Source of the DNA: a virus | Strand: one strand, 5' to 3' | Length of the DNA: 59,057 nt | Virus record (IMG/VR): IMGVR_UViG_3300031565_000032 | Shown: positions 25,010-59,057 of the stretch, piece after piece | Layout: every line of letters starts with the position of its first letter | Numbering within the stretch: position 1 is the stretch's first letter | The notes under the pieces: model-generated | The model's input: only the letters and a program-made list of their open reading frames with translations | What the model was told of the DNA's origin: nothing | Databases searched by the model: none | Position numbers and translations under genes: made by a program

Positions 25010-25096
25010 GGGGAGTTGTCAGAGTGGTTGATTGTACTCGACTTAAAATCGAGAGGCTGTGCGAGCAGCCCAGGAGTTCGAATCTCCTACTCCCCG
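25010..25096 (+). tRNA. tRNA-Leu (anticodon UAA), type II with a long variable arm, no encoded CCA
   Basis: Hand fold. Acceptor GGGGAGT/ACTCCCC. Anticodon stem CTCGA/TCGAG with loop CTTAAAA. Variable arm GGCTG/CAGCC. T arm AGGAG-TTCGAAT-CTCCT. Discriminator G. Confidence 0.85.
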
Positions 25097-50419: not shown

Positions 50420-51097
50420 TTACCGGATGCTATTTTGCAACCTTCGTAGACCATCCTTTTCGACTACCTTAATCCCACAACTCTGTAGGTGGCTCATCAG
50501 GCTTTCGATTTTAGACCATGATGGCTCCGGCAAACCATGACGGTAACTGTCTGCACCAATCTCAACTATCTCAGGGTTAATATCCAATACCCATGACGTA
50601 AATATCTCAAGGTCAAAATCCATAATTGGTTCTATACTCAGAAACTTATGAGTGTTATTGTTCATGGCAAAACTGTGATAACGACTTATCGGGTGTGGTG
50701 CTCTACTATAATCAATCTTCCTGTTTGTCTCTATTGTAGCTCCATGATAAATGTGTTCAGGCCATACCAAGCCATTTAGAAACATATCAGGGCTTTTAGT
50801 TTGGAGCAAAAAGTTTGTTTCGGGATACTTTTCAATGACATTCAGAATAGAGTGCAATTGAGGCCATGTAGCAAAAGATATATCTCCCATGTCGGTAACA
50901 AACACGAAATCCCCAGGCTTAAAAGTCTTATCTAACTCATCGACATGAAAGGTCGGCTTGAATTTTGCAGTAGAATACCGAGGCGTATTAGCCAATTTCC
51001 CTAGAGCCAAATTCCTTGCCCAACAATAGGAGCACTCAAACCCACAACCTGTAAACGGATTCCAAGTTCTTGTTACAGTCTTGAACATCTTACTCAT
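50420..51097 (-). CDS. Gp37/Gp68-like (DUF5131-like) protein with a CX3CX2C cluster motif (225 aa)
   Basis: TWNPFTGCGFECSYCWARNLA at the N-terminus. Confidence 0.6.
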   Translation of the reverse strand: MSKMFKTVTRTWNPFTGCGFECSYCWARNLALGKLANTPRYSTAKFKPTFHVDELDKTFKPGDFVFVTDMGDISFATWPQLHSILNVIEKYPETNFLLQTKSPDMFLNGLVWPEHIYHGATIETNRKIDYSRAPHPISRYHSFAMNNNTHKFLSIEPIMDFDLEIFTSWVLDINPEIVEIGADSYRHGLPEPSWSKIESLMSHLQSCGIKVVEKDGLRRLQNSIR

Positions 51098-51131: not shown

Positions 51132-51707
51132 CTAAACTTGAGACTGCAAATATACTAACCCCCTTATCTCCTGCCAATCTTTAACTCTGGTTAGTTTATT
51201 CTGTATGTCTAAACACTTTACATTCCACGACTGCTCATACAGGAGTTTTAAAGTACTGTTAGTATTCATTAGTTTAGCAGGCGAGTCGTCTATGTGGACA
51301 TCGTATGTTCCCAACCATTTTGTAACTAAATCATCAAACGGTATATTATATCTATTTAGCCACCTTTCAAGTTCTAATTGCCCCATATATTTAACCCTGT
51401 TTGAATAGATTATTATTTCATGTTTACCTCTCCACTCGTTAAGGGTTTCCAGCGCACCTTCATTGAACGTAGGCTCACCGAATACCTGTTCTTTAAACAT
51501 CACGTCAATTTCTAAATTAGATACTCCGAGTACATCTGCTAAGTCATAGGCATAAATTTCTCTGGGGGATAGGTCTACATTAAAGTATTTCTTAACCAAG
51601 AATTTAAAGTCATAGGCACAAATCACGCCGTCAATATCAACCAGGATACGTTTAGGTCTCTTTAAGTATTCCTCTAAACACTCAATAGCATCTGTTTCAG
51701 CTTTCAT
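51132..51707 (-). CDS. HAD-superfamily hydrolase, 5'(3')-deoxyribonucleotidase (NT5C)-like (191 aa)
   Basis: ILVDIDGVICAYD (DxDxV motif I), IIIYSNR, HIDDSP. Confidence 0.55.
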   Translation of the reverse strand: MKAETDAIECLEEYLKRPKRILVDIDGVICAYDFKFLVKKYFNVDLSPREIYAYDLADVLGVSNLEIDVMFKEQVFGEPTFNEGALETLNEWRGKHEIIIYSNRVKYMGQLELERWLNRYNIPFDDLVTKWLGTYDVHIDDSPAKLMNTNSTLKLLYEQSWNVKCLDIQNKLTRVKDWQEIRGLVYLQSQV

Positions 51708-51853
51708 TTCTCCTCCAATAGTATTTTAAAATACTCCTGTAATATATAAACAATCATAAAGTCCTGTATAGGGTTCTCTAAGAGGCGATAGTCCTTTCTC
51801 AATCTTTCATTACAGTTTTCTCTTATTCTATCTATTGTCTTCTGGTTTATCAT
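51704..51853 (-). CDS. Small protein (49 aa), ATGA-coupled at both ends
   Basis: MINQKTIDRIRENCNERLRKDYRLLENPIQDFMIVYILQEYFKILLEEK. Confidence 0.55.
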   Translation of the reverse strand: MINQKTIDRIRENCNERLRKDYRLLENPIQDFMIVYILQEYFKILLEEK

Positions 51854-52413
51854 AACTCTATATCGCTATCTACTTCATTCCCCCAAGAGTCCCAACCAAA
51901 AGCCCGTCGTCTTGCAAATAGTTCTATACGAGAAGCATCGGGATATACTCGCATTATTAAATCACGCATCGCTTCGGGCTTTTGAGAGTGTCGGCTTCTT
52001 GCTGCAAATATTACGTTTGCTTCACGGAGAGAAGCTGGAATGGGCATTTTCCCTCTGATGCCAAAAAGGACATGCTCGGTATTACCACGGAAATATGAGC
52101 CCATTCCAAGACCTGGCTGTTTTACCCACGTTAGTATAGTCCTGTAATCAAAACCCCAAGCTCGCATAATATGGAATGGAGTAAAAGAAGCATTTGTGTT
52201 GCGGTCACCATATAAACGAGGGTTAGTTATCCATAAAAATAAAGCGGAATCATCTGCTGCTATATTAACAACTGGTAGCTTAGAAATTTCTATCATGCTC
52301 ATTGTTGGATAGTTGTCCTCGGCTGTATTGCGTTCGTGACCATTATGGATATTCGGGCTTTTACGATATTGCCACGGCGGGTCAGCATATATTATCTGAT
52401 ATTTCTTATTCAT
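51850..52413 (-). CDS. MT-A70 family DNA N6-adenine methyltransferase (187 aa)
   Basis: YQIIYADPPWQY (DPPW), LFLWITN, HSQKP. Confidence 0.85.
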   Translation of the reverse strand: MNKKYQIIYADPPWQYRKSPNIHNGHERNTAEDNYPTMSMIEISKLPVVNIAADDSALFLWITNPRLYGDRNTNASFTPFHIMRAWGFDYRTILTWVKQPGLGMGSYFRGNTEHVLFGIRGKMPIPASLREANVIFAARSRHSQKPEAMRDLIMRVYPDASRIELFARRRAFGWDSWGNEVDSDIEL

Positions 52414-56520: not shown

Positions 56521-56871
56521 TTAATCCATGTGGTTTATCCATTTTAAAATCAGTTTATTCATTGACTTGGTAAGAACTGTTCGGATACCATAGGTTTTTA
56601 TCATCCAATGTTCCATATCGCTGAGGTCTAAAAAGCCATCAACTTGCGCCTCAATATCAGTAATGTTAGTGGATGTATCGCCAGTTAGTTTTATCTCCTT
56701 ACTGATAATCTCCGCTACCCCCAAATTCTCACTTTTTGGAGAACGGTTATTTAAGTAAACCTGAACCAACTCGCCGACTTGCCAATCCTTATCTTTACGA
56801 GGAAATCTGAATGTTGTAAATTCGTGTTGATTTAATTTATCCCACTTTTGGCAGAAACTTATAATTCTCAT
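56521..56871 (-). CDS. ASCH-domain-like protein (116 aa)
   Basis: MRIISFCQKWDKLNQHEFTTFRFPRKDKDWQVGELVQVYL...LGVAEIISKE. Confidence 0.55.
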   Translation of the reverse strand: MRIISFCQKWDKLNQHEFTTFRFPRKDKDWQVGELVQVYLNNRSPKSENLGVAEIISKEIKLTGDTSTNITDIEAQVDGFLDLSDMEHWMIKTYGIRTVLTKSMNKLILKWINHMD

Positions 56872-57223
56872 TCTCTCCTTCTCTATCCTTGAGGGCTTGC
56901 CAATCTTCCGTACTCAATTCTAAATGCTCAAATTTACTAGCATCTTTTTGAATCATCTCAGTTAGATTATGAGCTTTCAGGTATTTTAATATCCTCTCCC
57001 GTTCCTCTTTCTTGGCCTCTTCCACTTCTCGCTCTATCGTATCATTTGCTTTTTTATATACCTTCTGTACGGCCTCATTTACTCTGGCTGTGTGGAGGAC
57101 GCAGATTTGGTCTACTATCTGTATTGCTCTTACTGCTAGTCTCTGCTCATCACGTATACCTTCCTCCCATAATTGATTCTTCGTCACTATAATCGCTTCT
57201 TCCCTGAACTCCTCATCAGTCAT
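56837..57223 (-). CDS. Hypothetical coiled-coil protein (128 aa)
   Basis: ORF track; CAGGAGGTCTAAC then ATG. Confidence 0.65.
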   Translation of the reverse strand: MTDEEFREEAIIVTKNQLWEEGIRDEQRLAVRAIQIVDQICVLHTARVNEAVQKVYKKANDTIEREVEEAKKEERERILKYLKAHNLTEMIQKDASKFEHLELSTEDWQALKDREGENENYKFLPKVG

Positions 57224-57619
57224 GTTAGACCTCCTGTTAATTAGTGGTGGGGGCTGGTTTATCTAGTCCATTTAACAGTATCCTCTAGAATCACGGCTAG
57301 TTCCCGCACCATAACTGTACCCCCACCTGCCAGCCAGTAGACAGTAGGAACTGGTCTCAAAGGACTATACTACTACTCTTTTACCCCTGCCCTTTCCTCT
57401 TTTTCCGAGTTCTTATTAAGTTCTTGTATTCCAACAAGAACGGGTGGCTGGCTACCAGCCCCTTGCCGAAGCACTCTATTAGAAGTACCATAGGTAGGTG
57501 GCTGGCCTTGCTGGCTCATTCTGTCCGTGAATGGTATTCTATCCGTTCCCAGCTTTCGCTGTCGGGCGTCCCCAGTCCGGCAAGTGCTCTCCAGCAAGAT
57601 ATTCAGTTGTACTCCTTTC
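57224..57619 (-). ncRNA. Candidate structured non-coding RNA or structured DNA element (about 390 nt, unclassified)
   Basis: Visibly G+C-richer than its flanks. The only ORFs are two mutually antisense low-complexity ones. Contains several short hairpins, including GNRA and UUCG tetraloops on the minus strand (see finding). Confidence 0.3.
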
Positions 57620-58087
57620 TTAGTTTAATCCTGTAGTATGCTTTATGCGGTTTTTATACCACTCAACTAATTGCTTGGCAGTTTCCGCTCCAAATATTGT
57701 GCTTAATTTTTCCGCCCTTATCATATCCCCGATTTCTTTTGTCGTCATTCCTACTTCCTGACCAGAGGGTTTAAGAACTTCCTCCCGTGCCTTTATAAAT
57801 TCGGCTTTAACTTCTGGGTCAAGCTCTGCTGTAGGTGGTGCTACTGGTGGTTTGATAAGGGCTTCTTTAACAGGCACAGCATTGTAGATATATTCCCGGT
57901 TGTATGCGACTGCAAAGTTTAATTGTAGAACTGCGCCGTCCTGCACTACGTCAAAGTATTGGACACGCTTATTACTTATCTTGTACTCAGTACCATTTTC
58001 GTCATTAAAAAGTAAATCCCCATAAGTATTGTCATGTTTATTGTGGACTGTTATTACCGCTTGTCTAGTTATCTGTTTCTCTACCAT
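57620..58087 (-). CDS. Hypothetical protein (155 aa)
   Basis: ORF track; AAGGAGGACAAAT then ATG. Confidence 0.7.
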   Translation of the reverse strand: MVEKQITRQAVITVHNKHDNTYGDLLFNDENGTEYKISNKRVQYFDVVQDGAVLQLNFAVAYNREYIYNAVPVKEALIKPPVAPPTAELDPEVKAEFIKAREEVLKPSGQEVGMTTKEIGDMIRAEKLSTIFGAETAKQLVEWYKNRIKHTTGLN

Positions 58088-58316: not shown

Positions 58317-58470
58317 CTTCCCACTCCTTTTTGATTTCTTCCCATACTTCACATTCACCTGACCTTAACAGGCATGGTTTAATTCTTCCTGAAGGGCGTT
58401 CCGTCAACTCGCAGTAATCCCACCATTCATCCTCAGATATCCGTTTACTTTTAATGTGAGGGCATTTCAT
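58288..58470 (-). CDS. Hypothetical protein (60 aa)
   Basis: ORF track; 4-nt overlap upstream. Confidence 0.55.
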   Translation of the reverse strand: MKCPHIKSKRISEDEWWDYCELTERPSGRIKPCLLRSGECEVWEEIKKEWEDESRITLSG

Positions 58471-58691
58471 TCTTTTCCCTCCCTTTTGGTTACTCCTATA
58501 TCCTTGATGGCTTGTATTTGACCTTCATTCAATACTTTATTTACACCAGCGAATCTCCTGTCCATTGTATTATCTTTGACCTTGTAATCACAATATTTAC
58601 AGTGTTTTATTGACCATCCATAACCCATATAATTTGGCTCAAACGATTCAATCTCATCTAAGGTATTCTGTTTACAATTAGGGCATTTCAT
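58467..58691 (-). CDS. Zinc-ribbon protein (74 aa)
   Basis: CPNC...CKYC. Confidence 0.6.
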   Translation of the reverse strand: MKCPNCKQNTLDEIESFEPNYMGYGWSIKHCKYCDYKVKDNTMDRRFAGVNKVLNEGQIQAIKDIGVTKREGKE

Positions 58692-58731
58692 ATCTTTATT
58701 CTAACCTCTTTTCTTTACAGTGTCAAGTAAC

Positions 58732-59057
58732 TCAGGGTATGTTGATGTTGCCGATTACTTCCCTTCCGCTACAGTAATCACTGGTCAAGGGATACTTGTC
58801 CCCGTTCTCCAACCCATTGATGTTTTGGAAGTAAAACCCCGCTTCACTCCAGATTACTACCCAATCTGCATAAGAGTATCTGCGGAGAATATCCCCTTCG
58901 TAAATCTCAATGCCGTTCTTATCCTTGAGACCTGTGTATTCACCTAGTGTATTAATATCGAGTAAGCCTTTCCTGATAAAACCCCAAAATTCCGCGAAGG
59001 CATATTCCATTTCATATTTATCAAAATTAGCATCTTTAACTCTGGAATAACGAATAT
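58732..59057 (-). CDS. YopX family protein, main part. The 5' end continues across the circular junction to the ATG at window position 191.
   Basis: See feature 1..191; GLKDKNGIEIYEGDIL...EVIGNI. Confidence 0.85.
   Translation of the reverse strand, partial: IRYSRVKDANFDKYEMEYAFAEFWGFIRKGLLDINTLGEYTGLKDKNGIEIYEGDILRRYSYADWVVIWSEAGFYFQNINGLENGDKYPLTSDYCSGREVIGNINIP
58931..59057. repeat. Terminal overlap copy 2 (identical to 1-127)
   Basis: Direct comparison of both ends. Confidence 0.95.

Follow-up and report, generated by a model that had tools for sequence, protein, structure and literature searches.

A modular structured RNA family in uncultured tailed phages and its possible role in transcriptional read-through

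Introduction

What occupies the 396-nt gap that separates two leftward genes of the uncultured phage genome IMGVR_UViG_3300031565_000032? This genome, which was analysed at its full length and is referred to below as the window, is complete (59,057 bp with direct terminal repeats, according to its IMG/VR record), and the gap extends from the stop codon of gene 57620-58087(-) to the ATG of gene 56837-57223(-). A preliminary description of the same DNA had singled out this interval (57224-57619) as lacking any credible gene and as a candidate large structured non-coding RNA of no known class, a proposal that is borne out by the Rfam, homologue, compensatory-change and coding checks reported here. 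The window encodes at 57246-57612(-) a non-coding RNA of ~365 nt that consists of a domain D1, an extra D2-like hairpin, a D2 three-way junction and a domain D4, and this copy belongs to a modular RNA family that is outside Rfam 15 and occurs in many uncultured tailed phages with barely related proteins. We regard it as close to certain that the family is one of structured RNAs. As to function, the candidate that we tentatively favor is a cis-acting element for processive antitermination.

Strongly conserved large structured RNAs are rare, and they have repeatedly proved to be ribozymes, riboswitches or parts of core cellular machinery. GOLLD and ROOL are large, ornate, multi-domain RNAs of unknown role that are often phage-borne near tRNAs (PMC12286853), and a survey of IMG/VR, the same data source as used here, yielded 10,006 unnamed candidate structured RNAs in viral contigs, which are the same kind of object as the present family (Fremin et al., 2023; PMC10690425). 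The family may be among those 10,006 candidates, and its newness rests on Rfam 15 and on the collections searched.

Results

A structured RNA in the gene-free gap

The open reading frames (ORFs) 57373-57597(-) and 57424-57636(+) of the gap are mutually antisense and of low complexity, and all others are shorter. Its G+C content is 0.48-0.52, compared with 0.28-0.44 in the flanks, in keeping with the G+C-rich island between AT-rich flanks that had been noted before. The minimum free energy (MFE) of the minus-strand RNA of the gap is -131.7 kcal/mol, whereas shuffled sequences have a mean of -115.1 (sd 5.3; z = -3.13), and not a single one of the 100 shuffles reaches this stability.

That either of the overlapping ORFs codes for a protein is next to inconceivable. 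The two frames, of 74 and 70 aa, are open and the minus-strand one is preceded by an AAGGAG, but that frame starts with TTG, 14 nt from this Shine-Dalgarno-like sequence; the 74-aa ORF has a single database match, a 48-aa sequence that coincides with part of it at 100% identity; and a PHROG search gave no match for either ORF. The spacing of the invariant P2 strands, moreover, is uniform modulo 3 across the family (15/17/16), which argues against coding. The ORF list and the absence of a coding signal in either ORF agree with the claim that the gap holds no credible gene.

Read in the sense of the RNA (minus strand), the element begins with an A/U-rich 5′ leader, GUACAACUGAAUAU (57599-57612), which is a weak copy of the family motif UUAACAA-N3-AAUAG and lies directly 5′ of the first helix. 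Domain D1 (57507-57598) is closed by helix P1, formed by CUUGCUGG (57591-57598) and CCAGCAAG (57507-57514), around a branched interior that includes CAGC-GAAA-GCUG (57550-57561). It is followed by the extra, degenerate D2-like hairpin (57454-57506), in which the MFE fold pairs GCCAGCC (57500-57506) with GGCUGGU (57454-57460) below a UGC-UUCG-GCA cap (57464-57473). Domain D2 (57329-57452) is a three-way junction of helices P2, GCCAGCCA (57445-57452)/UGGCUGGC (57329-57336), P3, CCC (57442-57444)/GGG (57390-57392), which has a 45-nt insertion that holds the hairpin 57420-57441, and P4, GUAG (57373-57376)/CUAC (57337-57340). R1, our covariance model of the D2 core, matches 57327-57454(-) with 55.2 bits (E = 2e-12), and R2, our covariance model of D4, matches 57243-57330(-) with 30.8 bits. 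Domain D4 itself (57246-57327) has the closing stem GGUGGGGGU/GCCCCCACC, the top GGGGU...ACCAGCCCC and an inner UUAAAUGG motif, and 11 nt past its end starts the ribosome-binding site AGGAGG (57230-57235) of the next gene, the ATG of which is at 57221-57223. The MFE fold of the window sequence alone recovers the helices of D1, the extra hairpin, P2 and D4.

The strings listed in the preliminary description all lie where it had placed them, and most of its hairpins have a place in this fold: CAGC-GAAA-GCUG is the inner hairpin of D1, UGC-UUCG-GCA caps the extra D2-like hairpin, the 8-bp stem GUUCUUGU/ACAAGAAC (57420-57441) is an insertion in the loop of P3 that is specific to the lineage, and the long-range complement GGUGGGGG/CCCCCACC is the D4 closing stem, which covaries in 25 homologues. 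The string GGCUGG-UAG-CCAGCC (57446-57460) is present as well, but it probably does not form the hairpin proposed, since the family model and the MFE fold alike assign its arms to two helices, one arm to the extra hairpin as its 3′ strand and the other to the D2 stem as its 5′ strand. The element is thus structured as had been suggested, but as a four-domain chain rather than a set of independent hairpins, one of which falls outside the conserved fold.

With the extra hairpin 57454-57506 the core is partially duplicated in tandem, as is also found in L013, L166 and L172, and the hairpin is a reduced form of the tandem-module arrays of some phages. In these arrays D1-like and D2-like modules, with two or three cores in a row, precede a single D4 (L013:2960-3710(+), L014:2740-3290(+), L166:596-1085(+), and L172:1141-1543(+)).

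Family census

The 155-aa protein encoded upstream of the element has metagenome relatives at ~40-57% identity, and the loci of these were gathered; in L010, L015, L020 and L014 the homologous gene is followed by a gene-free gap that has short motifs in common with the window element. Motif scans of IMG/VR then retrieved further members. Scan 1 (AGCCAGCAA...CCAGYYAC) gave ~12 true members among 103 matches and scan 2 (GCCAGYYACCCGAARGGGC) ~24 among 28; scan 3 (GCCAGCYACC-N40-70-CTACTRGCTGGC) gave 33 matches, and every one of these that was passed to the R1 search was confirmed, the remainder being duplicate contigs of known members. With R1 there are matches at E < 1e-3 in 52 places, including the window, and these are 52 cores distinct by sequence in 46 loci (the window, 5 metagenome contigs and 40 IMG/VR contigs), with identical copies on further contigs.

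The members have a common architecture. D1 is the helix CUUGCUGG/CCAGCAAG around a variable interior, often with UGUCC...AACUAUCGG...GCGAAA...CCGAG. D2 is present in all copies, with P2 as GCCAGCYA/URGCUGGC, P3 usually as CCC-GAAA-GGG, a purine-rich joiner, and P4 usually as GUAG(C)/(G)CUAC. An optional D3, GCCUGAGCC/GGCUCAGGC, is absent from the window. D4 is closed by GGUGGGGU...CCAGCCCCACC and has a covarying outer stem, the top GGGGU...(A)CCAGCCCC and the inner UUAAAUGG, and in members that have it the start codon of the next gene is 15-33 nt further on. In 693 kb of phage sequence, including six complete genomes, R2 matches solely beside D2 cores, and hence D2 and D4 belong to one molecule.

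Among 50,697 records of cultured phages, BLASTN with the window element and with two further members found one 19-nt chance match only, one member had no match in E. coli genomes, and an exact 18-mer scan of viral contigs gave two chance matches only. The metagenome and genome collections were scanned with exact patterns only. The D1/D2 junction pattern occurs in 38 stretches of 185,579 bacterial and archaeal species genomes and, among the matches listed, these are ordinary coding sequence without an upstream D1 partner; six stretches have a downstream GCTGG without the rest of the fold, and there is no prophage copy among the matches listed. The signature strings of the family were not found by a string search of the literature.

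Selection on RNA structure

The variable stems of the family change in a compensatory manner, so that the covariation looked for in homologues is present. In the D4 stem, 6 of the 10 pairs have compensatory changes among 25 sequences; one such pair is UA in 7, GC in 6, AU in 4, CG in 3 and GU in 2. The same 8-bp P1 helix of D1 is returned by RNAalifold on 20 homologues, with at least one compensatory change at 5 pairs. Both results are independent of the P2 and P3 strings that were fixed in retrieval. For P2 and P3 of D2, much of which was fixed by the retrieval patterns, 97% of cells are paired in 47 distinct sequences, compared with 11-57% when the partners are slid, and P2 position 7 is UA in 29, CG in 13 and UG in 4 of these. 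Because P4 is short and for the most part invariant, its counts of 5-mer complements do not differ significantly from shuffles, and no convincing covariation was seen when the printed sequences were inspected by eye for pairing of the third CCAGC box (in D4) with the GCUGG box of D1 or D2.

These data also bear on the idea that the feature acts as DNA, with CCAGC/GCTGG boxes about one helical turn apart serving as protein sites for an origin, recombination or packaging. Each element has three CCAGC and two GCUGG boxes, two boxes are 10-11 nt apart in CCAGCAAG-N-GCCAGC, and the GCTGGTG(G/T) stretch in D1 resembles Chi: D1 starts with GCTGGTGG, which we take to be the exact E. coli Chi octamer, in L059, L094, L177 and L184, and with GCTGGTGT in most others. 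The window copy, however, reads GCTGGAGA, which is not Chi. Covariation of the variable stems is not needed for a duplex protein site, G-U pairs and GNRA/UUCG loops are found on the minus (sense) strand alone, and the orientation is always that of transcription. A DNA site is therefore very improbable.

Comparison with known RNA classes

Rfam 15, which covers RNase P, transfer-messenger RNA (tmRNA), 6S, signal recognition particle (SRP) RNA, group I/II introns, GOLLD, ROOL, HEARO, small ribozymes and riboswitches, contains no family to which the element can be assigned. At gathering thresholds the only match in the whole window is a tRNA-Leu at 25010-25096, and at E ≤ 10 the region 57100-57750 has one chance-level match, to RAGATH-23, inside the upstream gene. 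Among member loci, 15 gave nothing at gathering thresholds and 14 gave nothing at the element at E ≤ 5. ARAGORN predicts neither a tRNA nor a tmRNA at the element. The likeness to RNase P RNA that had been called superficial in the preliminary description is indeed so, in that no Rfam family matches the element even at E ≤ 10.

Several classes were also considered on other grounds. Introns interrupt genes whose exons rejoin, and a group II intron needs a domain V and usually a reverse transcriptase. A group I/II intron was rejected, as there is no model match, the last residue of the upstream ORF is the same whether or not the element follows, and PF00078 (reverse transcriptase) is absent from the six complete genomes G000-G005, while control genomes gave matches. 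The absence of PF00078 from G000-G005 likewise led us to reject the template RNA of a retron, a diversity-generating retroelement (DGR) or a UG27-type system. A riboswitch or gene-specific leader was rejected in view of the downstream genes, which encode exonucleases, scaffold-like proteins, HNH endonucleases and many unrelated unknowns, and a phi29-type packaging RNA, which belongs to small protein-primed phages, in view of the lack of an Rfam match and of carrier genomes of 41-65 kb.

Genomic context

The 52 distinct copies are all co-oriented with the close flanking ORFs and lie within long co-directional gene blocks, and in the window the RNA is sense-oriented in a leftward early operon, with which it is presumably co-transcribed. 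Complete carrier genomes (41-65 kb) have one copy, sometimes two or three weaker ones. By BLASTP, the six complete genomes have almost no proteins in common, the exceptions being methyltransferases, tail proteins and one protein of ~570-620 aa, and they offer no candidate partner protein. Sequence comparison shows far stronger conservation of the RNA than of the proteins of its carrier phages.

The gene upstream of the RNA in the window (57620-58087(-)) encodes a 155-aa protein of unknown function with the C-terminal block GMTTKEIGDMIR...WYKNRIK, and it ends at the same residue in relatives without the RNA. The protein family is without a match in Pfam or PHROG; its N-terminal half is variable, its C-terminal block, SGQEVGMTTKEIGDMIR...FG.E....L..WYK.RI..TTG (alignment A2), is nearly invariant, and it is found with and without the adjoining RNA. 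In L002 (= L005) and L008 the next ATG is 2 nt after the stop codon of the homologue and the element is absent, and in G012 the element is ~8 kb from the homologous gene. The downstream gene (56837-57223(-)) encodes a 128-aa protein of unknown function without a Pfam match and with one weak PHROG match (phrog_3878, of unknown function, E = 0.006). Elsewhere in the family, PD-(D/E)XK-type exonucleases are downstream in a syntenic subgroup, scaffold-like genes occur, a head protease is upstream in one locus, and the other neighbors are unknowns. Endonuclease genes are directly beside the RNA in three loci (L014:3254-3700(+), L045 ~9685 onward, and L094:7028-7213(-)). The L014 protein, encoded downstream, has a LAGLIDADG-like GIIDGEG motif and a PHROG label of HNH endonuclease (2.5e-21), and HNH-type motifs were recognized by eye in the L045 and L094 neighbors.

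Such patchiness invites the proposal that the RNA is a ribozyme or a selfish mobile RNA, with a self-cleaving motif or as an intron-like insertion, that spreads among phages. It is patchy among relatives, being absent at the same junction in L002/L008 and ~8 kb away in G012, it is far better conserved than the proteins of its carrier phages, tandem copies exist, and homing-endonuclease-type genes adjoin it in L014, L045 and L094. Nevertheless, no ribozyme or intron model matches, no gene is interrupted (the end residue of the upstream ORF is the same with and without the element), no target-site duplication was seen, the six complete genomes have no reverse transcriptase, and the endonuclease neighbors are few. 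We consider a selfish RNA distinctly improbable.

A near-consensus sigma-70-type promoter, TTGACA-17-TAGAAT, is located at 58698-58726(-), ~1.1 kb upstream of the RNA and between genes 58732-59010(-) and 58467-58691(-). It agrees with the consensus at 11/12 positions, and by this consensus match only it is probably an early promoter of the leftward operon of the RNA. Further strong promoter matches in the window are at 49452-49424(-) (12/12) and 49599-49572(-). Across the family, a consensus TTGACA promoter is found within 240 nt upstream of 6 of the 52 copies and an intrinsic terminator within 330 nt downstream of 8, where ~1.4 would be expected from the sense-strand density and ~3 per gene junction. 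L174, L185 and L207 have the order promoter, RNA, terminator, gene, and in L045 a terminator comes directly after D2. A T7-like phage promoter was dropped as a candidate; no T7-type single-subunit RNA polymerase was detected in the five genomes searched, a weak negative in that the controls gave no matches either.

Discussion

A cis-acting read-through RNA as a proposed function

We propose, as a possibility somewhat short of an even chance, that the RNA is a cis-acting processive antitermination element like put or canT. The RNA would fold as it emerges from the polymerase that made it, and through binding of its invariant helices to the host RNA polymerase or to an elongation factor it would make the polymerase resist both terminators and Rho throughout the operon. 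We arrive at this proposal from the sense orientation, the low copy number, the diverse neighbors, the promoters and terminators in a subset of loci, and helices that outconserve the proteins. Flanking genes vary between phages, so that the RNA is not a gene-specific regulator, and near-invariant helices in phages whose proteomes can hardly be aligned fit a conserved host target such as RNA polymerase. Low copy number and sense placement are also as with nutL/nutR and putL/putR.

Antiterminators made of RNA alone, including large ones, are known in mobile elements (PMC9378689, PMC11658703). The put RNAs are ~70 nt long with two stem-loops, are present in two copies per HK022 genome and act in cis as RNA alone to suppress terminators, putR being ~270 nt downstream of the promoter (PMC9378689). 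The canT RNA of Tn916 is ~340-452 nt long, acts only in cis and in one orientation, and allows passage through several terminators, including foreign ones (PMC11658703). HK022 putL/putR match the present family in early-operon position, orientation and copy number. In structure the family does not fall within put, from which it differs in size and topology: two stem-loops in ~70 nt stand against a three-way junction and as many as four domains in 75-480 nt, and no sequence likeness was seen. The put RNA acts via the beta′ zinc-binding domain of the polymerase. A parallel in size is canT (and conAn2 of pLS20), a large structured RNA of a mobile element like the present one, and its size means that antiterminator RNAs can be as large as this family. 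The canT RNA is from a Gram-positive conjugative element and is without a published covariance model, and the likeness is one of description.

The third system for comparison is the lambda nut site, together with the leaders of rRNA (rrn) operons, and here the 5′ leader of the family is of interest. Its motif UUAACAA-N3-AAUAG is present in 21 of the 46 loci, and some leaders fit boxA at 10-11 of 11 positions. In L211 the leader has 14 consecutive nucleotides identical to the E. coli rrn boxA-spacer given in PMC2724277. The gamma-proteobacterial boxA consensus is GYTCTTTAANA (PMC5725501). Measured against this consensus, which may not be that of the host, 4 of 22 leader copies agree at 10 or more of 11 positions and the others at 3-8. 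The GCUCUUU core of boxA is read by NusB/NusE, and boxB is a G+C-rich GNRA hairpin, to which P3 (CCC-GAAA-GGG) may be likened. In lambda nut, boxA and the boxB hairpin, to which an N protein binds, are ~8 nt apart, whereas in the present family the only GNRA hairpin, P3, is 60-250 nt downstream of the leader and within the three-way junction, and in the window its loop is replaced by the 45-nt insertion; the RNA is thus not a lambda boxB. No N-like gene was recognized among the annotated proteins (PHROG/Pfam), and a host rrn boxA was sought without success in five bacterial genomes. The leader might recruit Nus factors that shield untranslated stretches from Rho, or it might be a processing signal, and we treat it as a lead and not as proof. 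It was dropped as a sigma-70 promoter, because its hexamers are without key -10 bases and the first helix follows after 0-3 nt.

The leader motif is also found before terminator-proximal small hairpins in L045, L107, L174 and L207, and in L182:4254-4760(-) there are two leader copies, UUAACAAUUGAAUAG, each before a tRNA-like sequence. ARAGORN calls one of these an abnormal tRNA whose anticodon has two bases, whereas the other contains segments like the D-, anticodon- and T-arms.

Several observations speak against antitermination. No intrinsic terminator directly follows the window copy, 44 of the 52 copies have no terminator nearby, and the enrichment of terminators is based on small numbers. 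With a size of up to ~480 nt, optional domains and tandem cores, the family exceeds put and EAR RNA and resembles GOLLD/ROOL. The apparent invariance of P2 and P3 is partly due to ascertainment. The window leader agrees with boxA, by a consensus that may not be that of its host, at 3 of 11 positions, and the part of the leader conserved across the family is UUAACAA-N3-AAUAG and not the GCUC half or GCUCUUU core. The leader, finally, may mark untranslated RNA genes generally rather than antiterminators.

Alternative functions

A stable trans-acting RNA that is excised from the operon transcript and serves as a scaffold, a decoy or an RNA-only assembly in the manner of GOLLD and ROOL is nearly as likely as cis read-through, and we hold it to be a real if unproven contender. 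The ornate multi-domain build and the strongly conserved helices and loops favor such an RNA, as do the copies that stand alone between a promoter and a terminator, with the L045 terminator right after D2. D4 never occurs without D2, so that the domains form one molecule; the L114 copy is beside a tRNA-like sequence; and the tRNA-like elements of L182 share the leader. GOLLD and ROOL themselves are precedents for large RNAs that phages carry and that have no assigned role (PMC12286853). Compared with them, the present RNA is smaller, more modular and set between the protein genes of an operon, and it has no Rfam likeness to either. Most of its copies, moreover, have no promoter or terminator of their own and are squeezed in after a stop codon and before the ribosome-binding site of the next gene.

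That same position could suit a punctuation element that directs cleavage by RNase III or RNase E or shields mRNA ends and so sets the expression of the next gene. D4 ends shortly before the next start codon (15-33 nt), members without D4 have a CCCC-UUCG-GGGG hairpin right before the ribosome-binding site, and an A/U-rich single-stranded leader next to stable helices is the usual setting of an RNase E site. Processing sites, on the other hand, rarely need four domains, a three-way junction and near-invariant sequence across unrelated proteomes, and one or two copies per genome compare with dozens of gene junctions. We therefore regard a processing or stability element as unlikely.

The CCCC-UUCG-GGGG hairpin just before the ribosome-binding site of the downstream gene, mostly an exonuclease gene, is found in L114, L177, L209, L221 and L186. 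It has no U-tract and is hence not a terminator, and it may be a 5′ stabilizer.

Implications

The RNA is found in at least 40 uncultured phage contigs and is absent from Rfam 15, from cultured phages and, among the matches listed, from the bacterial genomes searched. If it is a cis antiterminator, then control of polymerase by RNA alone in the manner of put/canT would be common in environmental phages, and the family would represent a compact and portable read-through element. If it acts in trans, it would join GOLLD and ROOL as an orphan RNA. It is conceivable, though we would not expect it, that the family is a new functional class of phage RNA, either a large RNA-only device that reprograms transcription in the host or a new ribozyme or self-assembling RNA with near-invariant helices that contact a universally conserved host component. 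Either option would explain the conservation of the RNA across phages with almost no recognizable common proteins. The covariance models and the member list make the family directly testable.

Further observations

In L059:2009-2155(-) the interior of D1 contains GGCGGAAUAGGUAGACGC, which resembles the D-arm of a class-II tRNA, and GGGUGCAAAUCCC, which resembles a T-arm, and ARAGORN calls no tRNA there. D1 as a tRNA-like domain was rejected, since there is no ARAGORN prediction, the linker between D1 and D2 is anywhere from 1 to 4 nt long among members, and tRNA-like arms are seen only in L059.

The early arm of the window also encodes an MT-A70 methyltransferase (51850-52413(-), Pfam match at 5e-25), an NT5C-type 5′-deoxynucleotidase (51132-51707(-), 1e-8) and a DUF5131 protein (50420-51097(-), 3.5e-11), and relatives of the MT-A70 protein were found by BLASTP in G002 and G005.

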